Shown here piece by piece: positions 11,121 to 22,824 of a DNA stretch of 53,444 nucleotides. Position 1 is the first letter of the stretch, and each line of letters opens with the position of its first letter. Position numbers and translations under genes: made by a program. The stretch is from Chloroflexota bacterium (GTDB taxonomy: Bacteria > Chloroflexota > Anaerolineae > UBA1429). Below the pieces are notes generated by a model that was not told the origin of the DNA, did no database searches, and worked only from the letters and a program-made list of their open reading frames with translations. The stretch lies in contig DAIRUQ010000003.1 of NCBI GenBank assembly GCA_036803245.1, positions 1 to 53,444 on the forward strand, given 5' to 3'.

Positions 11121-12404
11121 ATGATGGACCGTGATCTCGCGCGGCGAGCTGCCTGGTGGACACACGACCGGTTCGGGATGTTTATCCACTGGGGTCTCTA
11201 TGCCCTGCCCGCCCGGCACGAATGGGTCAAGAACCGCGAGGAGATACCCGATGAAAAGTATGATGAGTACTTTTCCCGGTTTGACCCCGATCTCTACGAT
11301 CCCGAGGAATGGGCCGAGGCGGCCGCCTATGCCGGCATGCGCTATGTGGTCTTGACCACCAAGCATCACGAAGGCTTTTGCCTGTGGGATTCAGCGCTGA
11401 CCGACTACAAGGTGACCAACACCCCTTGCGGCAAGGACTTGCTGCGCCCCTTTGTGGAGGCGTTTCGCGCCAAGGGCATCAAGATCGGCTTTTACCATTC
11501 GTTGATCGACTGGCACCATCCCGATTTCACCGTCGATCGGGTGCATCCGATGCGCAACAACGAGGCAGCGCGAGCGGCCAACGCGCAAAAGGACATGGGG
11601 CGCTATGCGGCCTATCTACGAGGCCAGGTCCGCGAGCTTCTGACCAACTATGGCCAGATCGACTATCTCTTTTTCGACTTTTCCTACCCGGGCGAGGATG
11701 GCAAGGGCCGCGACGACTGGGAATCGGAAGAGCTGTTGGCGATGGTGCGTGAGCTGCAACCCAATATTCTCGTCAACGACCGTCTGGATCTGATGGACGT
11801 GCCGGGCGGCTTTGACTTTATCACCCCCGAGCAGGTGATGGTACGAAGCCAGCCAGAGATAGACGGCCAGCCGGTGCTGTGGGAGACCTGCCAGACCTTT
11901 TCCGGATCCTGGGGCTACCATCGCGATGAGGACACCTGGAAGAGCGTCAAGCAGTTGCTGGTGCTGCTCATCGATACGGTCAGCAAGAACGGCAACCTAC
12001 TGCTGAATGTCGGGCCGACCTCCAGGGGCGAGTTCGACGATCGAGCGTTGGACTGCCTGGAGGGCATGGGATCGTGGTTGCGCCGGCACGGGCGTGCCAT
12101 CTATGGCTGTGGCGCCGCGCCGGCAGAGTTCGCCGTTCCCCAGGACTGCCGGCTTACCTACAACGCGGAGACCAACCGCCTCTATGTGCATGTGCTGAAT
12201 TGGCCGATTCGCCACCTCCATCTGGACGGTTACGCCGGCCGCGTCTCCTATGCCCAGCTTTTGCACGATGGGTCCGAGGTGTTCTATAGTGCTGCGCCCA
12301 AACGGCTCTCACACTGGGAGGGCGAGAGTGGCAACCTCACCCTAGAGCTGCCTGTCCGTGAGCCCAACATCGAGGTCCCGGTGATCGAGCTCTGGCTCAC
12401 CTAG
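11121..12404 (+). CDS. alpha-L-fucosidase (GH29)
   Basis: DRFGMFIHWGLYALPA...MRYVVLTTKHHEGFCLWDS...LLLNVGP. Confidence 0.9.
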   Translation: MMDRDLARRAAWWTHDRFGMFIHWGLYALPARHEWVKNREEIPDEKYDEYFSRFDPDLYDPEEWAEAAAYAGMRYVVLTTKHHEGFCLWDSALTDYKVTNTPCGKDLLRPFVEAFRAKGIKIGFYHSLIDWHHPDFTVDRVHPMRNNEAARAANAQKDMGRYAAYLRGQVRELLTNYGQIDYLFFDFSYPGEDGKGRDDWESEELLAMVRELQPNILVNDRLDLMDVPGGFDFITPEQVMVRSQPEIDGQPVLWETCQTFSGSWGYHRDEDTWKSVKQLLVLLIDTVSKNGNLLLNVGPTSRGEFDDRALDCLEGMGSWLRRHGRAIYGCGAAPAEFAVPQDCRLTYNAETNRLYVHVLNWPIRHLHLDGYAGRVSYAQLLHDGSEVFYSAAPKRLSHWEGESGNLTLELPVREPNIEVPVIELWLT

Positions 12405-12416
12405 TCCGAGCATTGT

Positions 12417-12445
12417 TTGACGACAACTGCTCTCTTTTCTAGAAT
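12417..12445 (+). promoter_or_regulatory. promoter at the head of the redox/encapsulin block (TTGACG-17 nt-TAGAAT)
   Basis: TTGACG at 12417-12422, 17-nt spacer, TAGAAT at 12440-12445. GGAGGA at 12470-12475 precedes the ATG at 12481. Confidence 0.6.
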
Positions 12446-12462
12446 GATTATGAGATTATCAT
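12444..12462 (+). promoter_or_regulatory. AT-rich imperfect inverted repeat overlapping the -10 box (candidate Fur/PerR-family operator)
   Basis: ATGATTAT-gag-ATTATCAT. The right half, ATTATCA, equals the Bacillus Fur-family 7-1-7 half-site. The spacer here is 3 nt, not 1. It is the most AT-rich patch in an otherwise GC-rich stretch. Confidence 0.35.
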
Positions 12463-12480
12463 CTACTGTGGAGGAAACAG

Positions 12481-12948
12481 ATGCCCGAGAAGACCGTCCT
12501 AGAGAACATCCTGGGTGTGGCGATCCAGCGTGAGGAGGCCGCCGCGGCCCTGTATGCCAGCGCCGCCAAGCAGGTGGAACCCGGCCCCGTGCTCGACCTC
12601 CTGATCGAGCTCAAGCAGCAAGAGATTGGGCACAAGCTTCGCCTGCAGCAACTACTGGACAAGGGCACCTTCCGCCGCATCTCGGCTGTGCAGCGGCGCC
12701 AGGTTGAAGACCTCAAGCTGACCGACTATTTGAAGGAAGAGGCGCTGGACCCCGAGACCGACTTGCAGGGCGTGCTGATTGTGGCCGGCAAGCGCGAAAA
12801 GGCCAGCCACGATCTCTATGCCGGCCTCGCCCAGGTGACCGATGACGCCGAGGTGAACGAGCTGTTCCGCTTTTTGGCCAACGAGGAACTGGGCCACAAG
12901 CATCGGATCGAGACCATGTATGAGGAGCTGTTCCTCCAGGACAACTAG
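12481..12948 (+). CDS. rubrerythrin-like diiron four-helix-bundle protein without a rubredoxin domain ('erythrin')
   Basis: E / ExxH / E / ExxH ligand set: IQREEAAAALY, KQQEIGHKLR, KREKASHDLY, ANEELGHKHR. Confidence 0.8.
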   Translation: MPEKTVLENILGVAIQREEAAAALYASAAKQVEPGPVLDLLIELKQQEIGHKLRLQQLLDKGTFRRISAVQRRQVEDLKLTDYLKEEALDPETDLQGVLIVAGKREKASHDLYAGLAQVTDDAEVNELFRFLANEELGHKHRIETMYEELFLQDN

Positions 12949-12996
12949 GAGGAGCTCTTTCTACGCCAAGCGCACGATGACCGCAAGGAGTATGTA

Positions 12997-13161
12997 ATGG
13001 CCAAGTACGAGTGCCTCGTTTGTGGCTATATCTATGATCCCGCCGAGGGTGATCCCGACGGTGGAGTTGAGCCCGGCACGGCCTTTGAGGACATTCCGGA
13101 GGACTGGGTCTGCCCCGAGTGCGGCGCCGGCAAGGACATGTTTGAGCAGATTGAGGACTAG
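12997..13161 (+). CDS. rubredoxin
   Basis: 54 aa, below the ORF-track cutoff: [54 protein letters not shown]. It has two CxxCG knuckles. AAGGAG lies 6 nt upstream of the ATG. Confidence 0.93.
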
Positions 13162-13184
13162 CTACTAGACACCTGATCCCGCGC

Positions 13185-13217
13185 GGGCCGGTGCATCTGG
13201 CCAGATGTGACCGGCCC
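13185..13217 (+). other. long GC hairpin between rubredoxin and its reductase (no U-tract)
   Basis: GGGCCGGTgCATCTGG/CCAGATGtgACCGGCCC, read directly. It may be an intercistronic stabiliser, processing site or partial terminator. Confidence 0.45.
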
Positions 13218-13277
13218 GTGGCGGAGAGAGAAGCGAACGCGCAGTCGGCTCAATCCGCATAGGCTCCCGGAGGCGGG

Positions 13278-14516
13278 ATGAGGTTCGTCATCGTCGGGAA
13301 TGGAATCGCGGGCGTCACGGTGGCGCGCACGGCATTGCAGGGTGATCAAAATCCTGATATCACCCTGCTTTCGCGCGAGCCCTATGCCTACTATCCCCGG
13401 CCACGTCTCATAGACTTGATTGCCGGAGACGATGACCCCAGCAGTATTCAGCAGTATCCCGATGATTGGTATGCCAAGCACGGGATCCGCCAGGTTCTGG
13501 GGGCTCGCGTCACGCGGTTGGCCCCGGAGGAGCATCGGGTCTACCTGAGCGATGGCAGCACCGAGGCGTATGACGTTCTGGTGTTGGCCACGGGAGCCGC
13601 CTCATGGATGCCACCGGTGCCTGGGATCGACAGCCCCGGCGTCTTTGGCCTTCGCAACATGGCGGACGCGCTGGCTATCCGCCAACGAGCCAAGCAGGTG
13701 CGCAGTGCTGCCATCATCGGCGGCGGGCTCTTGGGGCTCGATCTGTCCGTTGCGCTAAGGGCCCACGGGCTGGATGTATCGGTCATCGAACTGCTTCCGC
13801 GACTCTTGCCCCGCCAGCTCGATGATGCGGGGGCCGAGATTCTCTGCCACGCCATGAGCGAGCGAGGTGTGGGGGTGCTCACGGGGCACCCCTGTTCTCA
13901 CATTCGGGCTGACGGCGATGGGTTGACCATCGCCCTGGAAGATGGCCCTGAGCTGCGCACCGACATGATCGTGGTGGCGGTGGGGGTTCGGCCCGAGGTG
14001 GAGCTGGCGGCGTCGGCGGGGATCGCTTGCGGGCGCGGCGTGCTGGTGGACGACCACTTGGCCACCAGCGCTGCTGATGTCTATGCTGTGGGCGACGTGG
14101 CCGAGTTCGACGGCCGCGTGTGGGGCATCATCCCTGCGGCGGTGGCACAGGCGCGCGTTCTGGGGCGGATTCTCGCTGGCGATACTGGTGCCACCTACAC
14201 GGATATCGTTCCCAGCACCACGCTCAAGGTGACGGGGATCGATTTGGCGTCGCTGGGCGAGGTCAACCCCGCCGACGAAACTGCGTACACGGCGGTGGTC
14301 AACTCCGATGAGCACGCCAACCGCTACTGCAAGTTGGTGTTGAGGCAGGGACATATCGTTGGGGCCATCGTCATGGGTGACCGCGAACGGGTCGGTCCTA
14401 TCAGTCAGTTGATCAACGAGGACGCGGACGTTTCTGGCTATGAGGAGCGCCTCGTAGCCGACGACTTTGATCTGCGAGCTTTTGTTCGAGAGCACGCCAA
14501 GGCCCACGGATCCTAG
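13278..14516 (+). CDS. NAD(P)H-dependent FAD oxidoreductase, rubredoxin-reductase-like
   Basis: Two dinucleotide folds (FVIVGNGIAG; AAIIGGGLLGLD) and a ...YAVGDVAE motif. Sits directly downstream of rubredoxin. Confidence 0.8.
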   Translation: MRFVIVGNGIAGVTVARTALQGDQNPDITLLSREPYAYYPRPRLIDLIAGDDDPSSIQQYPDDWYAKHGIRQVLGARVTRLAPEEHRVYLSDGSTEAYDVLVLATGAASWMPPVPGIDSPGVFGLRNMADALAIRQRAKQVRSAAIIGGGLLGLDLSVALRAHGLDVSVIELLPRLLPRQLDDAGAEILCHAMSERGVGVLTGHPCSHIRADGDGLTIALEDGPELRTDMIVVAVGVRPEVELAASAGIACGRGVLVDDHLATSAADVYAVGDVAEFDGRVWGIIPAAVAQARVLGRILAGDTGATYTDIVPSTTLKVTGIDLASLGEVNPADETAYTAVVNSDEHANRYCKLVLRQGHIVGAIVMGDRERVGPISQLINEDADVSGYEERLVADDFDLRAFVREHAKAHGS

Positions 14517-14558
14517 TGCAGGGCAGCAGGCCAGGTTTCGGGGTGCAAGGAGGGTACG

Positions 14559-15509
14559 ATGAGCGAGACCACCATCGCGTTGCTTCGAGAGGACATGAAG
14601 GGCGAGCATCAGGCGATTATCCAGTATCTGCGACACGCCTATGCCCTGGGGGAGACGCCCGAGGCAGCCGAGATTGAGGGCATCGCCCGCGAGGAGATGC
14701 GTCACTTTCACTGGCTGGCTGACGCCATCGTAGAGCTCGGCGGCGATCCGACAATGGAGCGCCCGCCCGTGGACGAAACCCGCGACGCCCCCTCCGTCCA
14801 GATGCTCAAGGATGTCGACCTGGAGCAACAGGCCATCGATCAATACCGCGATCACATCGAGCGCATCGATGATCCCAAGATTCGGCGGTTGCTGTCGCGC
14901 ATCCTCCATGATGAGCTGGTGCACAAGGGTGAGTTTGCCGAGTTTGCCGAGGCGCTTGAGGAGCAGCTCGCAGCCGAAGAGGGCGAGGGCGAGGCGACCG
15001 ATGCGGCTCCCAGCGCGCGGCTGGCTGAGGTCCTCAACCAAGGGGTGCAGCACGAGTATTCGGTCGTGCTCCAGTATCTCTACCATGCCTTTATGACGCC
15101 CGACAAGGAGCCTGCTGAGGAGATCGAGGATATCGCCATCAACGAGATGCAGCACCTGGGCTGGCTGGCCGAAGAGCTCTTTGAAAAGGGAGCCGACGCC
15201 AAGTTCGAGCATGGCAAGCTGGTACTCACCGATGATATCATCCAGAACCTCAAGGCCGATATCGCCATCGAGCGCGAGGTCACCGAGGACTATTCTGAGC
15301 AGATCCCCGAGTTCACGGAAGAGGATATCGTGGCCTTGGTGGAGCGGATCCGCGACCACGAGATCGATCACACGGCGGTGTTCCAGTACTTGCTGGATGA
15401 GGCCAAGGAACAGGCATCCATCGAGACGGCCGAGCCGCCCAAGGATGCCGATGAGCCCAAGGGACCGCCCAAGCCGCCTTCGGTCGGCAGCCTGGTCAAT
15501 CGCGGGTAG
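14559..15509 (+). CDS. tandem ferritin/bacterioferritin-like diiron protein with a C-terminal encapsulin targeting-peptide-like tail (putative cargo)
   Basis: Two four-helix-bundle halves, each with E/ExxH/E/ExxH. Half 1: GEHQAIIQY, EEMRHFHW, LEQQAIDQY, HDELVHKGE. Half 2: VQHEYSVVLQY, INEMQHLGW, IAIEREVTEDY, RDHEIDHTAV. Then a P/K/E-rich linker (ETAEPPKDADEPKGPPKPP) and the terminal SVGSLVNRG. The stop lies 30 nt before the shell gene. Confidence 0.85.
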   Translation: MSETTIALLREDMKGEHQAIIQYLRHAYALGETPEAAEIEGIAREEMRHFHWLADAIVELGGDPTMERPPVDETRDAPSVQMLKDVDLEQQAIDQYRDHIERIDDPKIRRLLSRILHDELVHKGEFAEFAEALEEQLAAEEGEGEATDAAPSARLAEVLNQGVQHEYSVVLQYLYHAFMTPDKEPAEEIEDIAINEMQHLGWLAEELFEKGADAKFEHGKLVLTDDIIQNLKADIAIEREVTEDYSEQIPEFTEEDIVALVERIRDHEIDHTAVFQYLLDEAKEQASIETAEPPKDADEPKGPPKPPSVGSLVNRG

Positions 15510-15539
15510 TGCATGCCGAGCATTGCAGAGGAGGATACC

Positions 15540-16313
15540 ATGAGCGACTATTTGTTGCGTGACGATGCCCCGATCAGCCCTGAAACCTGGGCCAAGGTCG
15601 ATGACATGGTGGTGACCGTCGCGAAAAAGAACCTTGTAGGCCGCAAGGTGCTCGAGATCGCTGGTCCGTTGGGCTGGGGTGTGGATGTGGCTCCGCGGTT
15701 TGGCTTTGCGGTCGACGATGATGCCTACGTGGCCGACGCGCCCGCCTATATCCAGCTGAAAGAGATCGCGGCAGAGTTCACGCTCAAGGCGCAGCACTTG
15801 GCCATGGCCGAGCAGACGCCCTATGGCCTGGATCTCGGCGCGGTAGCGATGGCTACCGTCAAGGTGGTTGGCGCAGAAGATGATCTCGTGGTGGGAGGCC
15901 TGATCAAGGCGGCCACCAAGAAAGCCGACTTGGGCGACTGGACCGCTATGGGCGGCCCGTTTGCGGCGGTTTCGCGGGGCATTGCTCTGTTGCGCAAGGC
16001 GGGCATCGACGAGCCGTACGCCCTGGTGCTCAGCCCGCTCAAGTACGCCCAGCTGGCCAGCCTCATGCAGCATGGTCGGCGTGAGCTCGCCATGGTCGAG
16101 AGCGTTGCCAAGGGTGGGATTCACCAATACGCGGACATGCCAGACGACCAGGTGCTCCTGATCGGCGCCGCGTCTTGGAATGCCGACATTGTGCTTGGCC
16201 AGGATCTGGTCACGGCCTATCTGGGCAACGAGGGCCTCGATCATCGCTTCCGCGTCTTTGAGACGGTGGCGCTTCGCATCAAGCGCTCCGACTGCGTTTG
16301 CGTGTTAGCGTAG
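15540..16313 (+). CDS. family-1 encapsulin shell protein (HK97 fold, linocin M18-like)
   Basis: MSDYLLRDDAPISPETWAKVDDMV...LVGRKVLEIAGPLGWGV...IDEPYALVLSP...GGIHQYADMPDDQVLLIGAASWNADIVLGQDLVTAYLG...FRVFETVALRI. This is collinear by eye with T. maritima encapsulin. GAGGAGGA precedes the ATG at 15540, and the ORF-track start at 15513 is likely too early. Confidence 0.92.
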   Translation: MSDYLLRDDAPISPETWAKVDDMVVTVAKKNLVGRKVLEIAGPLGWGVDVAPRFGFAVDDDAYVADAPAYIQLKEIAAEFTLKAQHLAMAEQTPYGLDLGAVAMATVKVVGAEDDLVVGGLIKAATKKADLGDWTAMGGPFAAVSRGIALLRKAGIDEPYALVLSPLKYAQLASLMQHGRRELAMVESVAKGGIHQYADMPDDQVLLIGAASWNADIVLGQDLVTAYLGNEGLDHRFRVFETVALRIKRSDCVCVLA

Positions 16314-16359
16314 CGATCCAAAGGTCCACCGAGCTGCCGCGACCATAGGAGGCGTCTCC

Positions 16360-18096
16360 ATGCCTATCAATGACATGACCTTTCGGATCGGCGGCGAAGC
16401 GGGCCAGGGCGTCGAGTCAGGCGCGGCGGGCTTTGCCAAGGCGCTGGCCCGCTCTGGCCTGCACCTCTGCGGCATCCCCGACTATTACTCGCGCATCCGC
16501 GGCGGGCACAACTTTTTCACGATCCGGGTCGGCGAGGAGCCCGTTCCCGCCACGCGTGACCATGTGGATCTCCTCATCGCTTTGACGGCGGAGACGGTGA
16601 CGCGCCACGTGGAGGCGCTTTCTCCAGGCGCGGCCGTTATCATCGATGACCAGCAGCCCCTTGAGGATGCTCTGCTAGAGGGCCGTGACCTGAATCTGGT
16701 GCGGCTTCCTCTGCTCGAGATCGCCAAGGGCGAGGGCAACGAGGTGATGGTCAATACCGCCGCTCTGGCTGCGGCCGCCGCCATCACCGAGCTGCCGCTC
16801 GACGCGGTGATGGACGTTATCGCCGAGAACTTTGCCAAGAAGGGCGACAAAGTCGTCGAGGCCAACCGACGTGTGGCCGAGGCGGCCTTTGACGAGGCTC
16901 TGGCAGCCCTCGAACGCCCCTTCGCGTGGAAGTTGCAGCCGATCGACGCCCCCCAGCGCGTGGTTATCAGCGCCAACCAGGCCTTTGCCATGGGCGCTCT
17001 CGTGGCTGGGTGCCAGTTCGTAGCGGGCTATCCGATGACGCCAGCCACCTCGGTGCTCGAGTACATGGCCACCCACGCCGAAGAGTGGGGCCTGGTCGTC
17101 AAGCATACAGAGAGCGAGATTGCCGCCATCAACATGTGCGTGGGGGCTGCCAATGCGGGCGTCCGCGCCATGGCGCCCACCTCGGGCGGCGGCTTTGACC
17201 TGATGACCGAGGGCCTTAGCTTGGCGGGGATGACCGAAACGCCGTTGGTGATCTACCTGGCGGGGCGACCTGGTCCCGCCACAGGGCTGGCCACGCGCAC
17301 GGCCCAAGCCGATCTGTTCCTGGCGATGCACGCGGGCCACGGCGAGTTTCCGCGCGTGATCCTGGCGCCCCACACGCCCCAGGCCTTTTTCGAGGCCGCG
17401 ATCCGTGCGTTCAACATTGCCGAGCGCTACCAGCTTCAGGTGATCGTGCTTTCGGATCAGTATGCCGCCTCGGGCATCTGGACCGTTGATGCCGACGCGT
17501 TTGACGTGGAGCACGTCCTCGTCGATCGTGGCAAGTGGCTGGCCGCGGAGGATCTGGCGTCGATGGAGTCCTATCAGCGCTATGCGATCACCGAGGATGG
17601 CGTGTCGCCTCGGGCGATTGCAGGGATCGATCCCAAGGCGGTATACCTGACGACGGGCAACGAGCACCGCGAGGATGGACATATCACCGAGGACCCCGCG
17701 ATCACGACCGCGATGACTGGCAAGCGTCTCCGCAAGCTCGAGGCAGCACGCGCCGATATCGGCGGACCGATCTGCTACGGCCCAGAAGATGCAGCCATGA
17801 CCTTTGTCTCGTGGGGGTCGACCTATGGCGCGCTGAGCGAGGCCGTCGATGCGCTGAACCGTGGCGGTGATAGCGCGAACCTGGTCCACCTGGTGGATCT
17901 GGTGCCGCTGCCGTCGGACCTGGTCCGCGAGGCTCTCGCAAGCTCCAAGAAGATCATTGTCGTTGAGGGCAACGCTCAGGGGCAGTTGGCCCAGCACCTA
18001 TGGACAGAGGCGGGCATCCGCGCTGATGAGACTCTGAAAAGGTACGATGGGCGCGGCTTTACGGCCGACTATATCCTAGAGAATATCGGGGGGTAG
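16360..18096 (+). CDS. korA: 2-oxoacid:ferredoxin oxidoreductase, alpha subunit (fused gamma-alpha type)
   Basis: 578 aa: FRIGGEAGQGVESGA... then ...GYPMTPATSVLEYM. 4-nt gap to the beta subunit. Substrate (2-oxoglutarate or pyruvate) is not decidable by eye. Confidence 0.88.
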   Translation: MPINDMTFRIGGEAGQGVESGAAGFAKALARSGLHLCGIPDYYSRIRGGHNFFTIRVGEEPVPATRDHVDLLIALTAETVTRHVEALSPGAAVIIDDQQPLEDALLEGRDLNLVRLPLLEIAKGEGNEVMVNTAALAAAAAITELPLDAVMDVIAENFAKKGDKVVEANRRVAEAAFDEALAALERPFAWKLQPIDAPQRVVISANQAFAMGALVAGCQFVAGYPMTPATSVLEYMATHAEEWGLVVKHTESEIAAINMCVGAANAGVRAMAPTSGGGFDLMTEGLSLAGMTETPLVIYLAGRPGPATGLATRTAQADLFLAMHAGHGEFPRVILAPHTPQAFFEAAIRAFNIAERYQLQVIVLSDQYAASGIWTVDADAFDVEHVLVDRGKWLAAEDLASMESYQRYAITEDGVSPRAIAGIDPKAVYLTTGNEHREDGHITEDPAITTAMTGKRLRKLEAARADIGGPICYGPEDAAMTFVSWGSTYGALSEAVDALNRGGDSANLVHLVDLVPLPSDLVREALASSKKIIVVEGNAQGQLAQHLWTEAGIRADETLKRYDGRGFTADYILENIGG

Positions 18097-18100
18097 CCAT

Positions 18101-18976
18101 ATGGTCAGCGTCAAGGACTTTTCCAATGACATTCGACCGACGTGGTGCCCTGGGTGCGGCGACTATGGCATCTGGAATTCCCTGAAGCGGGCCCTGGTGC
18201 AGGCTGAGCTTACGCCCCAACAGGTGATGCTGGTCAGCGGCATCGGCTGCGGCAGCAAGATCAGCGACTATATGACCATCAATGGGCTGCACACCCTGCA
18301 TGGTCGCGCCTTGGCCGTCGCGACGGGATACAAGCTGGCCAACCACGGCATGAAGGTGATCTGCGTCCACGGCGATGGCGACGGCTATGGCATGGGCGCG
18401 AACCATATGCTCCACGCCGTCCGCCGCAATATCGGCATCGTTGATATGGTGCAGGATAACCATGTGTATGGGCTCACCAAGGGGCAATACAGCCCCACCA
18501 GCCGCGCGGGCTTTCGCACCAAGACCTCGCCGCACGGCCCTCTGGATCGGCCCGTGAATCCGCTGGCGCTGGCGCTATCTCAGGGGGCGACCTTTGTGGC
18601 GCGCGGCTTTGCCCTGGATCTCAAGGGGCTGATCGAGCTGATGGTGATGGCCCTCGATCATCGCGGCTATGCCCTGATCGACATCATGCAGCCCTGTGTG
18701 TCGTTCAACAAGAGCATGGACTATGACTGGTTCTCCGAGCACACGTATCGCGTGGAGGACGAGGGGCACGATCCCAGCGACAGAATGGCGGCCATGGCGC
18801 GGGCGTTCGAGTACCCAGGTGGCGAGCGCATCCCGTTGGGTCTGATCTATCGCACCGAGGAGGTGCCTTCCTACGAAGAGCAGGTTCCTGCTCTGCAAGG
18901 CGGTCCGCTGGCGCAGCAGTCGCTGCGTAGCCGACCCGCGGAGGCATACCGCCAGTTGCTGGACGAGCTCGCCTAG
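18101..18976 (+). CDS. korB: 2-oxoacid:ferredoxin oxidoreductase, beta (TPP-binding) subunit
   Basis: PTWCPGCGDYGI...SGIGC...VHGDGDGYGMGANH. Confidence 0.9.
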   Translation: MVSVKDFSNDIRPTWCPGCGDYGIWNSLKRALVQAELTPQQVMLVSGIGCGSKISDYMTINGLHTLHGRALAVATGYKLANHGMKVICVHGDGDGYGMGANHMLHAVRRNIGIVDMVQDNHVYGLTKGQYSPTSRAGFRTKTSPHGPLDRPVNPLALALSQGATFVARGFALDLKGLIELMVMALDHRGYALIDIMQPCVSFNKSMDYDWFSEHTYRVEDEGHDPSDRMAAMARAFEYPGGERIPLGLIYRTEEVPSYEEQVPALQGGPLAQQSLRSRPAEAYRQLLDELA

Positions 18977-18985
18977 GAGGCCAGC

Positions 18986-19498
18986 ATGCGGGTGACGGTC
19001 TATAGCACGCCGAGCTGTCCCTACTGCCACCAGGTCAAGCAGTACCTGGGGGGGCGTGGCGTGGCTTTCGAGGACCACGACGTGTCTCGTGATCCTTCCG
19101 CCGCGCAGGAAATGCTTCGGATCTCGGGCCAGCGCGGCGTGCCAGTCGTGCAGATCGGCGACCAGGTGGTGGTTGGCTTCGATCGGCCGCGGTTGGACGC
19201 CTTGCTGGACGGCGCTGCTCGAAAGGGCATGGGGGTAGCGGTGGCCGATGCCGCCGATATGGCCGCCCGCGGCGTGACCGACCTGGCCAGCGGCGCCTAT
19301 GTGGGGCGCGTCAGGGCAGATAGCGTGGCCGCGCGGGCTGGCATCGCGGCGGGCGATGTGATCGTATCGCTGGCGGGGGAGCCTGTGCGCTCCGCGGCCA
19401 GCCTGGAGACGTTGGTGGCGCGGGTTCCCGAGGGCCGCGCTGTGTCAGTCGAATACGTCCGCAATGGGCGGCGTTTCAACGTAACATTGGAGCTCTAG
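18986..19498 (+). CDS. glutaredoxin-like (CPYC) domain fused to a PDZ domain
   Basis: N-terminus: VTVYSTPSCPYCHQVKQYL...GVPVVQIGDQVVVGFD (Grx/NrdH fold). C-terminus: GAYVGRVRADSVAARAGIAAGDVIVSLAGEPVRSAASLETLV...VEYVRNGRRFNVTLEL (PDZ). Confidence 0.8.
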   Translation: MRVTVYSTPSCPYCHQVKQYLGGRGVAFEDHDVSRDPSAAQEMLRISGQRGVPVVQIGDQVVVGFDRPRLDALLDGAARKGMGVAVADAADMAARGVTDLASGAYVGRVRADSVAARAGIAAGDVIVSLAGEPVRSAASLETLVARVPEGRAVSVEYVRNGRRFNVTLEL

Positions 19499-19540
19499 CA
19501 GCCATCGCGCGGCGATGGCCCAACGATGGGAGGGACCAGA

Positions 19541-20038
19541 ATGTCGACCAAGGATGCCGCTCTGCAGGCGCTCAGCCAGGCTTTGCGTCTGGAGCAAGAG
19601 GGGCGCGCCTTTTATCTGCAGGCGGCCAAGGACACGGTGGATGAAAAGGGCCAGGCCATGTTCCTCTCGCTGGCCGACGATGAAGCCAAGCATGCTGATA
19701 TGATCCAGCGGCAGTTCCATGCCATTGAAGGCGGCGGCGACTATGTCCTGCTGCCTGATCTACAGGTTGCCGAGATCGACCTGGGGAAAAAGCTGTTCCC
19801 GCCCGACGCCGACGCCATCCGCGGCGCAGCGGATCAGGCCACCAACGAGCTCGAGGTGCTGCACCTGGCGCTCGACAACGAGATCAAGAGCTATGACCTC
19901 TATTGCGAGGCGGCCGATTCCACAGAAGACGATGCGGGGCGTGCCATGTACGCGTGGCTGGCCCAGGCCGAGAGGCAGCACTTTGATCTGCTCATGAGCA
20001 ACTGGGAATCCCTAACCGCCATGGGCGGCTGGGTCTAG
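19541..20038 (+). CDS. rubrerythrin-like diiron protein ('erythrin'), paralog 2
   Basis: LEQEGRAFY, ADDEAKHADM, LDNEIKSYDLY, AQAERQHFDL. GGGAGGGA precedes the ATG at 19541. The ORF-track start is 19526. Confidence 0.75.
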   Translation: MSTKDAALQALSQALRLEQEGRAFYLQAAKDTVDEKGQAMFLSLADDEAKHADMIQRQFHAIEGGGDYVLLPDLQVAEIDLGKKLFPPDADAIRGAADQATNELEVLHLALDNEIKSYDLYCEAADSTEDDAGRAMYAWLAQAERQHFDLLMSNWESLTAMGGWV

Positions 20039-20071
20039 CGATCCGCCAGACGGGTCGGAGAGGAGACATTC

Positions 20072-20599
20072 ATGTCGACAGCCAAGAGCCTCGAGGTCCT
20101 CAAGCGAGGGATGAAGACCGAGCTCTGGGGACAGCGTTTCTACCGCGAGGCCGTCGCTCGCACAGAGTCTGAGGACGGCAAGCGCGTATTCCAGAGCCTG
20201 GTCGACGAAGAGGGCAAGCATCTCGATATTCTTCGAGGGCAGTACGCCAGCCTGTCTGAGCAGGGTGGTTGGGTTTCACCCAGCCATGCGCTAGAGATGG
20301 CCGAGGCGGCCGAATCGACGCACATCTTTCCTGAGGCCGAGGATGTAGAGCAGCTCATCGCCGATGACACCACCGACCTGGGTGCGCTCGAGATGGCCAT
20401 GGAGTTCGAACGACGCGGCTATGAGCAGTACATGGACAATGCTGAGGATGCTGATTCGCCCGAGGCGCAGGATCTGTGGCGCACCCTGGCGGATTGGGAA
20501 GACCAGCACTTTGCCTTCCTGCAAAAGAGTCACGACTTTTTGAGCAGCAACGGGTCTTGGTACTTTGACGAAGAGGAGCTTCCCTTCTTTGAGGGCTGA
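20072..20599 (+). CDS. rubrerythrin-like diiron protein ('erythrin'), paralog 3
   Basis: TELWGQRFY, VDEEGKHLDI, MEFERRGYEQY, ADWEDQHFAF. Confidence 0.75.
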   Translation: MSTAKSLEVLKRGMKTELWGQRFYREAVARTESEDGKRVFQSLVDEEGKHLDILRGQYASLSEQGGWVSPSHALEMAEAAESTHIFPEAEDVEQLIADDTTDLGALEMAMEFERRGYEQYMDNAEDADSPEAQDLWRTLADWEDQHFAFLQKSHDFLSSNGSWYFDEEELPFFEG

Positions 20600-20626
20600 T
20601 AGGCCTCTAGGAATCGACGGCTCGCG

Positions 20627-21337
20627 ATGATCGGGACATTCATCAACGCCGCCGCCGTGCTCGTGGGCGGCGGCCTTGGTACGTGGTTGGGGCAGCGGCT
20701 CCCGCCACGGATCCGCGACACCGTGCAGAACGGCCTGGGCCTGGTGACCATGCTGGCGGGCCTGCAGATGGCCTTGCAGACCGAGAACATCCTCATCACC
20801 ATGGGGAGCCTGCTGGTAGGTGGCATCCTGGGCGAATGGTGGCATCTGGATGAGGGCCTCACCAGGATGGGCGACCGCCTCAAGGCGTTCACGGCCCAAC
20901 GGCTGGGTACGGGCAACCTGGGGCTGTTCACGGAAGGGTTTGTCACCGCGAGCCTGGTGTTCTGCGTGGGGCCGATGACCGTGCTCGGCTCGATTCAGGA
21001 CGGCCTCACGGGCGACTATACCCTGCTGGCGATCAAATCCATGCTGGATGGCTTTGCCGCCCTGGTGTTCTCGTCGTCGATGGGCATTGGCGTGGTGTTC
21101 TCGGTGCTGACGATCCTGCTGTTCCAGGGGGCCATCACGTTGGGGGCTGGCGCGGTCCAGACGATCCTCACCGACGCCATGATCGCCGAGATGACAGCGG
21201 TCGGTGGGGTCATCATTATCGGCATTGCGCTGTTGCTGCTGGACCTCAAGCGGATCCGCATTGCCAGCTTTTTGCCGTCTTTGGCCATCGCTCCTGCTCT
21301 GGTTTGGCTACTGACCGCCTTGGGCGTGGCCTGGTAG
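20627..21337 (+). CDS. DUF554-family integral membrane protein
   Basis: MIGTFINAAAVLVGGGLGTWLG... Polytopic and hydrophobic throughout. Family assignment is from memory of YdfK/YqgA-like N-termini. Confidence 0.75.
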   Translation: MIGTFINAAAVLVGGGLGTWLGQRLPPRIRDTVQNGLGLVTMLAGLQMALQTENILITMGSLLVGGILGEWWHLDEGLTRMGDRLKAFTAQRLGTGNLGLFTEGFVTASLVFCVGPMTVLGSIQDGLTGDYTLLAIKSMLDGFAALVFSSSMGIGVVFSVLTILLFQGAITLGAGAVQTILTDAMIAEMTAVGGVIIIGIALLLLDLKRIRIASFLPSLAIAPALVWLLTALGVAW

Positions 21338-21360
21338 AAGGACAAGCCAAGTGACGGGGA

Positions 21361-21389
21361 GGGGGGTATGGCCAGCGGCCATACCCCCC
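21361..21389. terminator. 13-bp GC hairpin, bidirectional terminator between DUF554 (+) and the AIM24-like gene (-)
   Basis: GGGGGGTATGGCC-agc-GGCCATACCCCCC followed by TTGGCG. Confidence 0.7.
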
Positions 21390-21407
21390 TTGGCGTCAAA
21401 ACGCGCG

Positions 21408-22088
21408 CTAGCCCTTGCTGGGGATATACTTGGAGATCTTTTGGGCCAGATTCGCGATGGGCATGCTCTGGAGCCAGATGTGCCCAGGCCCCTTGAGCGT
21501 GGCCAGAAAGAGCCCCTCGCCCGAAAAGAGGGCGTTGGTGATTCCCTTGACGGTGCTGATGTCATAGTCCACGCTGGGCTCATACAGCGCAATGTGGCCT
21601 GGGTCGACTTGCATGACTTGGCCCGCGGCCAGGTCATAGTCGCGGACGTCTCCCGCGATCTCCAGGAACACGGTGCCTGGCCCGCTGATCTTTTGCAGGA
21701 TAAAGCCTTCACCACCGAACAGGCCCGCGCCCAGCCGCTTGCGAAAGTGCATCTCCACGGAGACGCTCTCTTCAGCCGCCATAAAGGTGTCTTTCTGGCA
21801 GATCAGGCTTTGGCCAGAGCCGAGCTCGAACACCAGGATCCTGCCAGGCGCTTCTGGCGTAAAGGTGACCATGGAAGATCCGCGATTGCAGCGGTACGAC
21901 GTCATGAACAATGATTCGCCCGCCAGTTTACGACCGAGGCCCGCCATGAGGCCTCCGCGTGTGTTGGTGTTCATGGCAACATCGCCCTGCATCCAGGCCA
22001 TCCCACCCGACTCGGTAAAGACCGACTCGCCCGCTTCCAGGTAGATGTCCACCGACGGCAGGACCGATCCGTTGATCTCGTAGCGCAT
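21408..22088 (-). CDS. AIM24/DUF124 (TIGR00266) family protein
   Basis: MRYEINGSVLPSVDIYLEAGESVFTESGGMAWMQGDV... from the ATG at 22086-22088 after GGAGGAGGGAG. The ORF-track start at 22124 is over-extended. Confidence 0.8.
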   Translation of the reverse strand: MRYEINGSVLPSVDIYLEAGESVFTESGGMAWMQGDVAMNTNTRGGLMAGLGRKLAGESLFMTSYRCNRGSSMVTFTPEAPGRILVFELGSGQSLICQKDTFMAAEESVSVEMHFRKRLGAGLFGGEGFILQKISGPGTVFLEIAGDVRDYDLAAGQVMQVDPGHIALYEPSVDYDISTVKGITNALFSGEGLFLATLKGPGHIWLQSMPIANLAQKISKYIPSKG

Positions 22089-22281
22089 GGTACTCCCTCC
22101 TCCGTGCCGTGACCGGCCGCGCACCCGCGACGGGCGGTCTCTTTGATGGAGAGATTATAGGGCAGGCGACGGGCTTCGCAAGTGCCTCGCGCGCTACCCC
22201 CATCCTCTTGGCGCCCCCCGGGAAAATGGACACTGCCGAGCCGTCGGCCTATACTAGTATGAGTGCTTACAAGATCCGAGG

Positions 22282-22824
22282 ATGGATATGGCTGTTCTAG
22301 ATATTGTCACGTCCGAGAATCCAGCTCTCCGAGAAAAGTCCAAGCGAGTGACCAGCTTTGGGTCGGGGTTGGAGAGCCTGGTGACCAGCATGTTCGAGAC
22401 GCTGCACTCTGCCAACGGGCTGGGACTAGCGGCTCCCCAGGTGGGGGTGCAGCAGCGCGTTTTCATCGTCGAGCTTCCCGAGGAGCTGGACGAAGAAGGC
22501 CAAGTGGAGCTTCCGGCCGAGAGCTATGTGCTCGTCAATCCCGAGATCGTCCGACGGCGCGGTGAACAAGAGATGGTCGAGGGATGCTTGTCGGTGCCCG
22601 GCTATCGTGGCATGGTCAAGCGCAACACCTTTGTGGTGATCAAGGGGCAAGACCTGACGGGCCGCAACGTGCGTTACCGCGCCGAGGGGCTCTTGGCTCA
22701 GGCCTTTCAGCACGAGCTGGACCATCTCGATGGAATCCTCTACATCGATCGCGTCGAGAGCGCTGACAAGCTATGGCAGATCCCTGTGGGGATGGAAGAG
22801 ATCGACGATGAGGACGAGGTCTAG
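22282..22824 (+). CDS. def: peptide deformylase
   Basis: GLGLAAPQVG, EGCLSVPG and HELDHLDG motifs. Confidence 0.95.
   Translation: MDMAVLDIVTSENPALREKSKRVTSFGSGLESLVTSMFETLHSANGLGLAAPQVGVQQRVFIVELPEELDEEGQVELPAESYVLVNPEIVRRRGEQEMVEGCLSVPGYRGMVKRNTFVVIKGQDLTGRNVRYRAEGLLAQAFQHELDHLDGILYIDRVESADKLWQIPVGMEEIDDEDEV

Follow-up and report, generated by a model that had tools for sequence, protein, structure and literature searches.

A Family 1 encapsulin and its ferritin-like cargo within a conserved Anaerolineae operon of predicted peroxide and oxygen defence

Introduction

What is an encapsulin doing in the middle of a long run of redox genes? The question is raised by a window of 53,444 nucleotides, the whole stretch of DNA analysed here (contig DAIRUQ010000003.1 of a Chloroflexota bacterium, Anaerolineae), in which a shell protein and its cargo are encoded among erythrins, a rubredoxin with a reductase, a 2-oxoacid:acceptor oxidoreductase (OFOR), a glutaredoxin-PDZ fusion (Grx-PDZ) and a DUF554 membrane protein. 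Do these genes form one operon, and is the compartment joined to its neighbours by electrons or by regulation? NAD(P)H:rubredoxin oxidoreductase (NROR), rubredoxin and rubrerythrin make up a peroxidase chain known from Clostridium acetobutylicum and P. furiosus; the chain of C. acetobutylicum is under the control of PerR.

A conserved block of eleven genes

Eleven plus-strand genes run from 12481 to 21337, with a promoter on their 5' side and a 13-bp hairpin on their 3' side (Table 1). An earlier note on this DNA had placed eleven genes between a promoter at 12417-12445 and a hairpin at 21361-21389; its reading frames, positions and gaps were all reproduced, and in domain searches every product matches the label given there. 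Each gene has its own ribosome-binding site, and successive genes are separated by 48, 116, 42, 30, 46, 4, 9, 42, 33 and 27 nt. This list presupposes the encapsulin start at 15540 and the gene 9 start at 19541, both backed by orthologues and ribosome-binding sites (GAGGAGGA at 15529-15536 for the encapsulin).

Table 1 Features of the eleven-gene block and its borders.
Feature	Position	Strand	Description
Sigma-70-like promoter	12417-12445	+	TTGACG 12417-12422, 17-nt spacer, TAGAAT 12440-12445; 10/12 in scan
AT-rich imperfect palindrome ATGATTATGAGATTATCAT	12444-12462		overlaps -10 box; candidate Fur/PerR-type operator
Gene 1, erythrin E1 (155 aa)	12481-12948	+	PF02915, E 3e-10; diiron four-helix-bundle protein
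Gene 2, rubredoxin (54 aa)	12997-13161	+	PF00301, E 1e-25; NCBIfam RubredRD equivalog, 106 bits (cutoff 90)
Internal GC-rich hairpin	13183-13219	+	16-bp stem, one bulge, about -37 kcal/mol; in the 116-nt rubredoxin-reductase gap
Gene 3, NROR-like flavoprotein (412 aa)	13278-14516	+	Pyr_redox_2 E 5e-58; Rubredoxin_C E 2e-19
Gene 4, double ferritin-like protein (DFLP, 316 aa), encapsulin cargo	14559-15509	+	two ferritin-like stretches; targeting peptide PSVGSL at 15477-15494
Gene 5, Family 1 encapsulin shell protein (257 aa)	15540-16313	+	PF04454 (Linocin_M18) E 6e-44; NCBIfam encap_f1, 164 bits (cutoff 100)
Gene 6, OFOR alpha (578 aa, gamma and alpha domains fused)	16360-18096	+	TIGR03710, 623 bits (cutoff 483); POR, POR_N, PFOR_II
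Gene 7, OFOR beta (TPP-binding, 291 aa)	18101-18976	+	TIGR02177, 344 bits (cutoff 262); TPP_enzyme_C, PFO_beta_C
Gene 8, YruB-type glutaredoxin-like domain (CPYC) fused to PDZ (170 aa)	18986-19498	+	Glutaredoxin, PDZ_2; TIGR02196 and NF041212 above cutoff
Gene 9, erythrin E9 (165 aa)	19541-20038	+	PF02915, E 7e-12; ExxH motifs; start supported by orthologues
Gene 10, erythrin E10 (175 aa)	20072-20599	+	PF02915; C-terminal tail G-x-W-Y-F-D-[DE]-x-E-[LF]-P-x-F-[ED]-G
Gene 11, DUF554 integral membrane protein (236 aa)	20627-21337	+	PF04474, E 2e-76
Terminal hairpin GGGGGGTATGGCC-AGC-GGCCATACCCCCC	21361-21389		between convergent DUF554 and AIM24 genes; extendable to 21352-21398
AIM24-family gene, convergent	21408-22124	-	PF01987, E 2e-70; outside the transcription unit

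Is this arrangement kept elsewhere? Related loci were defined by an encapsulin at least 45% identical, which gave 47 Anaerolineae loci, 28 of them fully evaluable for all eleven genes. All records that carry a name are MAGs assigned to Anaerolineae, Anaerolineales or Chloroflexota, and many of them come from anaerobic bioreactors and sediments. The synteny that the earlier note had suggested looking for is there: all eleven genes occur in the same order in 23 of the 28. E1, rubredoxin and DFLP lie 5' of the encapsulin in 38 of 38 loci, Grx-PDZ lies 3' in 33 of 33, and E9 is found in 32 of 33. The DFLP-encapsulin pair stands invariably between reductase and OFOR. Beyond the block, the AIM24-family gene follows in most loci, at 72-92% identity. 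Judged by this synteny, the eleven genes act as a single conserved operon in uncultured Anaerolineae.

The same comparison also takes the block apart. The reductase is present in 33/38 loci, one further locus (L005) holding a decayed remnant; the five reductase-less loci retain OFOR, and the loci that have lost OFOR (L001, L011 and L024) keep the remaining operon, reductase included. We count this pattern in favour of reductase and OFOR being alternative electron inputs. In more distant relatives (35-40% encapsulin identity), DFLP and encapsulin occur as two-gene pairs alone in non-redox contexts. Conversely, OFOR-GrxPDZ-E9-E10-DUF554 clusters exist elsewhere without an encapsulin and without a rubredoxin gene, next to a Prx-Grx fusion, disulfide reductases, a thioredoxin-like protein, a DJ-1-erythrin fusion and a nitroreductase; E10-DUF554 pairs are found without OFOR as well. 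By its gene content, then, the operon is a modular fusion of separable modules.

One promoter and several hairpins

Inside the block, the sole other plus-strand promoter-like match in the scan is a weak one (9/12) at 21191, in agreement with the earlier note, which had seen no second -35/-10 pair there. With six promoter-like matches observed in 12 kb against 2.6 +/- 1.7 expected, one lone match is not significant; its positional conservation across loci is. In 29 of 30 orthologous loci a promoter scoring 10-11/12 lies at most 120 nt 5' of gene 1, a score of 10 being attained by about 1% of shuffled sequences, and upstream of some 280 other genes there are just three weak matches. The larger internal gaps give no promoter signal across loci, their scores being no better than those of shuffled sequence. 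Expression starting from one promoter would best explain these observations.

The palindrome at the -10 box is the single site of its kind in the window. The closest loci, L001 and L010, retain it in part, and outside the closest relatives it is not conserved. Six other loci have a Fur-family gene immediately 5' of gene 1, and none was found in the 53-kb window. The operon promoter is probably under a Fur/PerR-type regulator.

At the other end, the terminal hairpin has a GC-rich 13-bp stem closed by a loop of 3 nt, with an energy of -41 kcal/mol (z = -5.1 relative to shuffled sequences); it is missed by a terminator scan because it lacks a T-tract. In 18 of 22 loci, gene 11 is followed by a hairpin at least as strong as -18 kcal/mol. 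The stem that the earlier note took for the single terminator is thus real, but an equally strong hairpin at 13183-13219 had been overlooked. With no promoter-like signal 3' of it, this internal hairpin is probably a leaky terminator or an RNA-stabilising stem. Most orthologous loci have strong hairpins in the same gap, several with T-rich tails; a position-conserved hairpin also follows the encapsulin gene in most relatives. Since there is more than one such hairpin, transcription is probably attenuated rather than uniform, and the hairpins could grade expression along the operon.

Might they instead be efficient terminators? Genes 3-5 and 6-11 would then be transcribed from non-consensus promoters, and three units would be held together by selection for co-inheritance only. 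The positions and T-rich tails of the hairpins fit such a division, as does their occurrence in the two longest conserved gaps (median 110 nt between genes 2 and 3, 109 nt between genes 5 and 6). However, promoter scores in exactly these gaps are at shuffled level, whereas consensus promoters are clearly used 5' of gene 1; the gap between genes 5 and 6 of the window has just 46 nt and no strong hairpin; and the genes are co-directional, closely spaced and individually equipped with ribosome-binding sites. We regard three separate units as highly improbable.

The compartment and its possible electron partners

The cargo, earlier named "Bfr", matches the T. minervae DFLP structure 9viw over its full length (E 4e-36). 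Its two EEHEEH diiron sites have 11 of 12 ligands invariant in 30/30 sequences; the window also has the twelfth, E166 (the first Glu of the CTD, in QHEYS), its column being left out of the count. The heme-ligating Met47 and Met197 are likewise invariant in 30/30. A C-terminal P-x-[VI]-G-S-L, preceded by a variable linker, is invariant in 32/32. A search of the other operon proteins for a targeting peptide found none, and the rubredoxin has no extension either. The nearest solved structure to the shell protein is M. xanthus EncA (E 1e-34).

The earlier note had proposed that the iron store is genetically, and perhaps functionally, wired to a dedicated low-potential electron supply. In the sharpest form of this idea, the NROR-like reductase, OFOR or both would reduce rubredoxin, which in turn would serve the encapsulated DFLP as its dedicated redox partner. 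Electrons might enter through the DFLP heme, reduce the ferric core and release Fe2+, as with Bfd and bacterioferritin, whose heme is the point of entry for the electrons that release iron (a matter discussed by Anuchina et al.); alternatively, the chain might serve iron oxidation under anaerobic conditions by taking away electrons or peroxide. If true, no encapsulin system before this one would have had an electron-transfer chain of its own. The universal company of E1, rubredoxin and DFLP and the fixed position of the pair are consistent with it, as is the Bfd-like ferredoxin of IMEF encapsulin operons, for which iron release has been proposed. A direct electron link stays a candidate because the heme-ligating Met residues are invariant. 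The claim as first made goes further than what is shown, though: the modules are separable, the targeting peptide is confined to DFLP, the flavin-stacking Trp of the T. maritima shell is replaced by Gln, and a path through the shell is not apparent. DFLP-encapsulin pairs of other lineages function without redox neighbours, the OFOR module occurs without encapsulin or a local rubredoxin gene, and peroxide defence is a simpler, established role for all these genes. On balance, we consider direct wiring unlikely.

The redox modules

All three erythrins carry a Rubrerythrin domain without the rubredoxin domain of true rubrerythrins; their peroxidase role is predicted by analogy. E1 has two ExxH motifs and 2fzf as its best PDB match. 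The reductase matches 3klj and 1xhc best, followed by the rubredoxin reductases 3fg2 and 2v3a, and stays below all NCBIfam equivalog cutoffs.

In the second module, OFOR alpha finds its best PDB matches in the two-subunit S. tokodaii OFOR (5b46) and M. marinus OGOR (6n2n). In ten orthologues the first Cys codon of Grx-PDZ is TGA followed by a SECIS-like hairpin; this Sec/Cys interchange at the first active-site position supports a redox-active glutaredoxin. The diiron ligands of E10 (E17, E47, H50, E113, E143, H146) are invariant, and its tail is kept down to 32% identity, also in loci with just E10 and DUF554. Structure prediction gives E10 as a four-helix bundle and places its tail with low confidence (best fold match 2fzf). 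DUF554 always follows E10 immediately and is 58-64% identical across aligned loci, including those whose E10 shares no more than about 32-39% identity with that of the window.

Two-subunit OFORs of the Sulfolobus/Magnetococcus type, to which the operon enzyme belongs, are found in aerobes and microaerophiles. Could the whole operon serve to keep this 2-oxoacid-oxidising, CoA-dependent enzyme running under oxygen, with erythrins, Grx-PDZ, rubredoxin chain and encapsulin as guardians rather than electron consumers? OFOR-GrxPDZ-E9-E10 is a self-standing conserved block with median gaps of 2 nt (within OFOR, genes 6 and 7) and 17 nt around OFOR, and each T. kodakarensis OFOR co-purifies its own rubrerythrin-related protein, for which the authors propose oxidative protection. 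Yet OFOR is dispensable in three loci, E10-DUF554 pairs do without it, and its retention in reductase-less loci would be left unexplained. Such a purpose for the whole operon is therefore quite improbable in our estimate.

A working model

The reading we prefer, with a probability of roughly 0.55, is a conserved, single-promoter operon of uncultured Anaerolineales for oxygen/peroxide and iron detoxification, in which a known encapsulin-DFLP compartment has come to sit between two redox-defence modules. It draws on gene content, motifs and synteny, with activities assigned by homology. E1, rubredoxin and the NROR-like reductase would form a 'split rubrerythrin' chain that passes electrons from NAD(P)H via FAD and rubredoxin to a diiron site and reduces H2O2, possibly O2, to water. 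DFLP, tethered within the shell by its P-S-V-G-S-L peptide, would oxidise Fe2+ from damaged Fe-S proteins at its diiron sites and deposit it as ferric mineral, and the Fenton catalyst would thus be removed. OFOR, Grx-PDZ (Cys here, Sec in relatives), E9, E10 and DUF554 would be a second, independently occurring module. It may feed 2-oxoacid-derived low-potential electrons into peroxide reduction, with rubredoxin and erythrins as acceptors, or it may keep an oxidant-exposed OFOR working; E10 and DUF554 form a fixed pair possibly involved in metal transport. Compartment and redox chains would be co-regulated parts of one stress response, and the observations can be explained without electrons passing directly from one to the other.

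The arrangement, with the fixed site of the DFLP-encapsulin pair and E1 and rubredoxin in 38/38 loci, is tighter than mere co-regulation needs, which could indicate direct coupling.

Comparison with known systems

The earlier note had held that the combination is not a described encapsulin type. No description of this operon was found in the literature, but a Family 1 shell with 'Bfr'/DFLP cargo has already been reported in Chloroflexi (PMC8346489). What appears to be new is the setting of this known type mid-operon among peroxide/oxygen-defence genes. Ferroxidase activity is known for this type of system (bioRxiv 10.1101/2025.09.13.676036), and for the DFLP family ferroxidase activity, heme binding and encapsulin targeting have been demonstrated (Anuchina et al.).

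Other compartments also keep company with redox proteins. In P. furiosus under oxygen stress, Flp-encapsulin particles are enclosed in rubrerythrin tubules, and archaeal Flp-fusion encapsulins adjoin genes for rubrerythrin, peroxiredoxin, Fur and Dps. The co-purification of T. kodakarensis OFORs with specific rubrerythrin-related proteins is a further precedent for the preferred reading. The T. maritima shell binds flavin through a Trp where the window's has Gln, and the ferredoxin of IMEF operons has a targeting peptide or extension, unlike the rubredoxin here. The Firmicute C. acetigignens has rubredoxin- and rubrerythrin-domain genes flanking its DFLP-encapsulin pair (bioRxiv 10.1101/2025.09.13.676036), a likeness that also speaks for direct wiring; the Anaerolineae operon supplies candidate electron-transfer partners for encapsulated iron.

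Gene content of the operon

The earlier note on this DNA had placed an encapsulin gene within a run of eleven plus-strand genes. An open reading frame listing recovers all eleven (g1–g11, 12481–21337), the domain content of every protein agrees with its proposed label, and the reported gaps (48, 116, 42, 30, 46, 4, 9, 42, 33 and 27 nt) are exact, given starts backed by orthologues and Shine–Dalgarno sequences. Co-directional genes, short gaps and one promoter together describe an operon, as predicted from sequence. The encapsulin is publicly annotated from 15513 (P0001, 266 aa), whereas its orthologues, together with a GAGGAGGA ribosome-binding site (15529–15536), support 15540 as the start (257 aa). 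A convergent AIM24-family gene lies beyond the last gene. It follows the operon in most related loci with 72–92% identity and as a neighbour is far better conserved than the operon's upstream flank.

Features of the window and of related loci (L numbers, from genome and metagenome scans). DFLP, double ferritin-like protein; OFOR, 2-oxoacid:acceptor oxidoreductase; Grx-PDZ, glutaredoxin-like protein with PDZ domain; E1, E9 and E10, erythrins.
Feature	Locus	Position	Strand	Remarks
Predicted promoter	window	12417–12445		TTGACG-17-TAGAAT
AT-rich imperfect palindrome	window	12444–12462		overlaps -10 box
g1, erythrin E1	window	12481–12948	+	155 aa, Rubrerythrin domain, without rubredoxin domain
g2, rubredoxin	window	12997–13161	+	54 aa, exceeds NCBIfam equivalog cutoff
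Internal hairpin	window	13183–13219		in 116-nt gap after rubredoxin gene
g3, flavoprotein	window	13278–14516	+	412 aa, Pyr_redox_2 and Rubredoxin_C
g4, DFLP	window	14559–15509	+	316 aa, two ferritin-like domains
g5, Family 1 encapsulin	window	15540–16313	+	257 aa
g6, two-subunit OFOR	window	16360–18096	+	578 aa
g7, two-subunit OFOR	window	18101–18976	+	291 aa
g8, Grx-PDZ	window	18986–19498	+	170 aa
g9, erythrin E9	window	19541–20038	+	165 aa
g10, erythrin E10	window	20072–20599	+	175 aa
g11, DUF554 membrane protein	window	20627–21337	+	236 aa
Terminal hairpin	window	21361–21389
AIM24-family gene (PF01987)	window	21408–22124	-	convergent
Fur-family gene	L004	769–1221
Fur-family gene	L008	1681–2193
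Fur-family gene	L012	6410–6859
Fur-family gene	L013	6439–6855
Fur-family gene	L020	6398–6853
Fur-family gene	L021	6562–7044
Decayed reductase remnant	L005	8700–8987
UxuA-like gene	L005	14612–15580		also in L006, L007
Xylose-isomerase-like gene	L016	11365–12195		also in L028
Cupin gene	L009	10802–11197
Grx-PDZ with TGA	L002, L003, L005, L006, L007, L009, L014, L017, L024, L030
(Disulfide reductase)-OFOR-GrxPDZ-E9-E10-DUF554	L087, L090, L097, L098			encapsulin-free
GrxPDZ-E10-DUF554	L085, L086			encapsulin-free
E10-DUF554 alone	L088, L089, L099–L101			encapsulin-free
Module neighbours	L098	249–5306		encapsulin-free
Module neighbours	L086	5426–9305		encapsulin-free
Module neighbours	L087	1195–2742		encapsulin-free

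The encapsulin shell and its cargo

In profile searches the shell protein matches PF04454 (E 6e-44, 151 bits, cutoff 24) and the NCBIfam family encap_f1 (NF041155, 164 bits, cutoff 100), and solved structures related to it include EncA and maritimacin. Its gene begins 30 nt after the end of the DFLP gene. Residues 6–268 of the DFLP, which comprise two ferritin stretches, align to PDB 9viw (E 4e-36), the DFLP of Thermocrinis minervae, whose identity is confirmed by P0241; a homologue search seeded with this T. minervae protein returned almost exclusively Aquificae. The features that define DFLPs, EEHEEH diiron ligands and two heme-ligating methionines, were taken from a recent preprint, according to which the methionines are 100% conserved in the family (bioRxiv 10.1101/2025.09.13.676036). 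Here, E16, E46, H49, E89, E119, H122, E196, H199, E238, E268 and H271 are invariant in 30 of 30 orthologues, as are the heme-ligating M47 and M197; the first Glu of the C-terminal domain, E166 (QHEYS), is present in the window's DFLP, its column being left out of this count.

Near the DFLP C-terminus, a variable, acidic and proline-rich linker precedes the targeting peptide P-x-[VI]-G-S-L, which is invariant in all 32 orthologues compared. No such motif was found at the termini of the other operon proteins, and the rubredoxin in particular showed no targeting signal. By shell family and adjacent targeted cargo, g4 and g5 are thus predicted to be a Family 1 (classical) encapsulin system. A shell-bound flavin relay in the manner of T. 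maritima was considered and rejected: in our alignment with the T. maritima shell sequence, the flavin-stacking Trp pairs with Gln.

Erythrins, rubredoxin and reductase

Genes g1, g9 and g10 all match PF02915, with ExxH pairs in E1 and E9 and invariant diiron ligands in E10. None of the three products matches Rubredoxin or RUBY_RBDX or has CxxC pairs; without the rubredoxin-like Fe(Cys)4 domain that is fused in a canonical rubrerythrin, they count as erythrins. A free rubredoxin gene adjoins E1. Both E1 and E10 find their best match in the P. furiosus protein 2fzf. The flavoprotein g3, a candidate rubredoxin reductase, carries Rubredoxin_C (E 2e-19) beside Pyr_redox_2, and among PDB entries 3klj and 1xhc match it best, ahead of the rubredoxin reductases 3fg2 and 2v3a; it falls below all NCBIfam equivalog cutoffs, the best matches there being the NirB N-terminus, PadH and NorW.

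Predicted transcription and its control

How is such a long gene set expressed? The promoter upstream of g1 scores 10/12 in our scan, and 29 of 30 loci have a sigma-70-like promoter of score 10–11/12 no more than 120 nt ahead of g1, that of L011 lying further upstream. The other operon genes, about 280 in total, have three weak promoter matches upstream between them. The terminal hairpin is strong (-41 kcal/mol, z = -5.1) and lacks a T-tract; hairpins follow g11 in 18 of 22 loci. As in the earlier note, no internal promoter appears, here at strict and at relaxed thresholds. The note had missed the internal hairpin after the rubredoxin gene, whose strength is comparable to that of the terminal one.

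This hairpin is part of a wider pattern. The two longest conserved gaps are g2–g3 (median 110 nt) and g5–g6 (median 109 nt), where promoter scores do not rise above those of shuffled sequence. Among loci L001–L033, most carry strong GC-rich hairpins in both gaps, conserved in position and divergent in sequence, several of them with T-rich tails. The window has the g2–g3 hairpin and lacks that of g5–g6, a gap of 46 nt here. The internal hairpins are likely to be leaky terminators or RNA-stabilising stems that grade expression, and in our reading one promoter would serve the operon with graded read-through, from g1–g2 to g3–g5 and then g6–g11. No Rfam family matched within 12000–22300.

A regulator is suggested by the flanks. 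Six loci have a co-directional Fur-family gene (PF01475) immediately upstream; the window has none, and an alpha-L-fucosidase gene stands in its place. The window contains no second copy of the AT-rich palindrome that covers the -10 box. This palindrome was rejected as a conserved Fur/PerR box, being partly conserved in L001 and L010 and not beyond them, and inspection of the six loci with Fur-family genes revealed no shared operator. Fur/PerR-type control is plausible.

Conservation and modularity

The encapsulin homologues belong without exception to Anaerolineae or Chloroflexota MAGs. An encapsulin-seeded genome scan yielded 33 loci and an E10-seeded metagenome scan 80 further ones; when the eleven proteins were compared with them by tblastn, the order g1 to g11 held at encapsulin identities down to 48%. 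Presence was counted in 47 loci with encapsulins at least 45% identical. The co-occurrence that the earlier note proposed to look for is seen in them: E1, rubredoxin and DFLP each lie upstream of the encapsulin in 38 of 38 evaluable loci, the reductase in 33 of 38. Downstream, where counts are biased because the metagenome loci were sampled via E10, OFOR is found in 31 of 33 evaluable loci, Grx-PDZ in all 33, and E9, E10 and DUF554 in 32 each. Both flanks could be evaluated in 28 loci, and 23 of these have the complete set of eleven. All five loci without the reductase keep OFOR, one of them (L005) with a decayed reductase remnant, and L001 and L011, which lack OFOR, keep the reductase.

Some loci hold additional genes: a UxuA-like gene between E9 and E10, a xylose-isomerase-like TIM-barrel gene after DUF554, or a cupin gene that separates encapsulin from OFOR.

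Beyond these close relatives the parts come apart. Encapsulins 35–40% identical to that of the window sit in plain two-gene DFLP–encapsulin pairs amid unrelated genes. Conversely, E10 homologues of 32–40% identity occur in clusters without DFLP or encapsulin, which range from an OFOR-containing set to E10-DUF554 alone. Neighbours of the encapsulin-free clusters include a thioredoxin-like DUF255 protein, Pyr_redox_dim disulfide reductases and a peroxiredoxin–glutaredoxin fusion; a DJ-1/PfpI–erythrin fusion, a LON N-terminal domain protein and a nitroreductase are also seen. None of the encapsulin-free E10 clusters has a rubredoxin gene. The OFOR-GrxPDZ-erythrin-DUF554 clusters without encapsulin sit in a context of oxidative and thiol stress.

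Solitary DFLP–encapsulin pairs on one side and encapsulin-free E10 clusters on the other point to the window's operon as a fusion of three parts. Judged from gene order, E1-rubredoxin-reductase, DFLP-encapsulin and OFOR-GrxPDZ-E9-E10-DUF554 would have been joined within one Anaerolineae clade.

OFOR, Grx-PDZ and the E10-DUF554 pair

The OFOR subunits exceed the cutoffs of TIGR03710 and TIGR02177, corresponding to a fused gamma-alpha and a TPP-binding beta subunit. No 4Fe-4S dicluster domain, and no delta ferredoxin subunit, was found in the operon. The enzyme is of the two-subunit Sulfolobus/Magnetococcus type, with 5b46 and 6n2n as its nearest structures.

The Grx domain of g8 belongs to the YruB family and to the Uxx-star (seleno)protein family. 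Its CPYC motif has TGA in place of the first Cys codon (T-U-P-Y-C) in ten orthologous operons, in which an identical hairpin, GUGAAAGA-GU[AU]-UCUUUCAC, begins 15 nt downstream of this codon, with an 8-bp stem and a G-containing loop. We interpret it as a putative SECIS element. The window and most other loci have Cys instead of TGA and lack the SECIS-like hairpin, so that the window's Grx-PDZ protein and its relatives form a predicted Sec/Cys pair.

About 209 clusters at 50% identity match E10 (E <= 1e-10). Its C-terminal tail, G-x-W-Y-F-D-[DE]-x-E-[LF]-P-x-F-[ED]-G, is kept down to 32% identity and predicted to be non-globular; the E10 model (pLDDT 75) gives weak matches to ferritin-like folds. 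DUF554 always follows E10 and is about 62% identical throughout. Its single-sequence model (pLDDT 47) is unusable, and a literature search on DUF554 yielded nothing informative. E10 and DUF554 are the most persistent gene pair, found also without any other operon gene, and recall erythrin–transporter fusions such as MbfA. We had considered the E9 and E10 tails as ligands of the Grx-PDZ protein. This is not supported, since the E10 tail is kept in loci without Grx-PDZ and in those with E10-DUF554 only, and distant E9 homologues run past the W-V end. That the E10 tail docks to DUF554 is a guess.

A probable detoxification operon with three possible arms

The best-supported reading of these genes is a co-regulated operon for oxygen/peroxide and iron detoxification, in which three arms may act side by side. 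The first would be a split-rubrerythrin NAD(P)H peroxidase chain, and in the second the encapsulated DFLP would sequester Fe2+. In the third, an OFOR-centred module would give 2-oxoacid-derived electrons, or OFOR would itself be the protected enzyme.

The interpretation in the earlier note is supported in part. The note had gone further and proposed a dedicated electron supply wired to the encapsulated iron store. The invariant heme-ligating methionines of the DFLP and the constant company of E1 and rubredoxin with the encapsulin (38/38) speak for it, and the work on T. maritima, whose authors postulate an auxiliary electron-transport protein, leaves the electron-transport partner as a question. 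Against it, the rubredoxin carries no targeting signal, the modules are separable, and the flavin-stacking Trp of T. maritima is missing from the shell. We consider it unlikely that the rubredoxin chain, supplied by the NROR-like reductase (NROR, NAD(P)H:rubredoxin oxidoreductase) and/or OFOR, is the physiological electron-transfer partner of the DFLP and that E10-DUF554 is a metal-moving membrane system. If true, no encapsulin nanocompartment before this one would have had a low-potential redox supply genetically dedicated to loading its iron core or releasing it, and tailed E10 with DUF554 would be a previously unrecognised two-component membrane system, like a split erythrin-transporter.

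Even if co-regulation is all that joins these genes, the operon is the largest conserved accessory gene set that we found reported for a Family 1 system, and shows a two-gene encapsulin cassette recruited into an anaerobe's oxidative-stress operon. It bears on how iron exits from encapsulins and on the electron acceptor or donor used in anaerobes. Rubredoxin, reductase and OFOR share a predicted transcription unit, found in dozens of Anaerolineae genomes, with the shell and with a cargo predicted to bind heme and act as a ferroxidase, which provides a short, testable list of candidates; this new embedding makes the question of the electron partner experimentally approachable. Tail-bearing erythrins, Grx-PDZ (seleno)proteins and DUF554, all uncharacterised families, likewise gain a testable context.

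Comparison with known systems

The encapsulin and its cargo are of a known kind; their conserved embedding in an eleven-gene redox operon is new. The earlier note's suggestion of a novel system type thus holds for the embedding, which is absent from the literature searched (where two papers mention encapsulin together with rubredoxin, and none mentions it with Anaerolineae or with both ferredoxin oxidoreductase and glutaredoxin), but not for the shell and DFLP cargo. Cargos of two four-helix bundles, then named 'Bfr', were described from Firmicutes, Aquificae, Chloroflexi and Cyanobacteria (Andreas & Giessen 2021, PMC8346489), and later work characterised DFLPs as ferroxidases that form dimers, bind heme and are directed into encapsulins (Anuchina et al. 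2025, bioRxiv 10.1101/2025.09.13.676036), where ferroxidase activity, heme binding and the homodimer are demonstrated for TmDFLP and CaDFLP only. As in those systems, the gene of a two-domain ferritin cargo immediately precedes a PF04454 shell gene, the C-terminal peptide reads x-[VI]-G-S-L, and the diiron sites and both heme-ligating methionines are conserved. The targeting motifs differ at their first hydrophobic position, which is Leu or Phe there and Pro or Ile-Pro here. In Caldanaerovirga acetigignens the pair is adjoined by rubredoxin- and rubrerythrin-domain genes (bioRxiv 10.1101/2025.09.13.676036). A conserved single-promoter operon of eleven genes sets the present pair apart from both papers (PMC8346489; bioRxiv 10.1101/2025.09.13.676036), which make no mention of a rubredoxin reductase, a two-subunit OFOR, Grx-PDZ, two further erythrins or DUF554.

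IMEF encapsulins also pair an iron-mineralising shell with a small Fe-S electron carrier (Giessen et al. 2019, PMC6668986), a Bfd-like [2Fe-2S] ferredoxin proposed to mobilise stored iron (PMC6668986; PMC8346489). A targeting motif stands at the N-terminus of that ferredoxin, which is co-purified with the shell, whereas none is present in the rubredoxin here. The cargo families differ as well, IMEF there and DFLP here, and the IMEF operons as described contain no reductase, OFOR or erythrins.

In anaerobes, oxygen and peroxide are detoxified by chains of NROR, rubredoxin and rubrerythrin (and SOR), as in P. furiosus, the PerR regulon of Clostridium acetobutylicum and Desulfovibrio. The operon has in common with them rubredoxin, diiron proteins with a rubrerythrin domain, a flavoprotein that resembles NROR (3klj and 1xhc being its best PDB relatives) and, in six related loci, an adjacent Fur/PerR-family regulator gene. 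Its diiron proteins are, however, erythrins without a fused rubredoxin-like domain, it holds no SOR or flavodiiron protein, and all its parts share one operon with encapsulin and OFOR.

Archaea offer precedents for a co-regulated detoxification operon. The best solved relative of the erythrins, 2fzf (Pfu-1136390-001), and one of the best of the reductase, 1xhc, are both P. furiosus proteins; their genes probably lie no more than a few kb from the Flp-encapsulin genes PF1191/PF1192, and if so, an erythrin and an NROR would stand beside an encapsulin there too. Under oxidative stress, rubrerythrin tubules of P. furiosus enclose Flp-encapsulin particles (bioRxiv 10.1101/2025.03.19.643997). Rubrerythrin-type peroxidases and an iron-mineralising encapsulin cooperate there in an anaerobe's oxygen response, as they may do here. 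The P. furiosus proteins are linked physically rather than by a shared operon, and the shell protein there includes the ferritin-like domain as a fusion; the erythrins here lack the tubule-mediating domain, with no sign of tubule formation. The OFOR-E9-E10 block in turn parallels Thermococcus kodakarensis, where specific OFORs are paired with specific rubrerythrin-related proteins (PMC12016516), by co-purification there and by gene order here; those OFORs have four subunits, and Grx-PDZ, DUF554 and encapsulin are not involved. Archaeal Flp-fusion encapsulins, finally, adjoin rubrerythrin, peroxiredoxin, Fur and Dps genes (PMC8346489). It is on these three precedents, the P. furiosus tubules, the T. 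kodakarensis OFOR partners and the neighbours of the Flp-fusion encapsulins, that our reading of a co-regulated operon draws.
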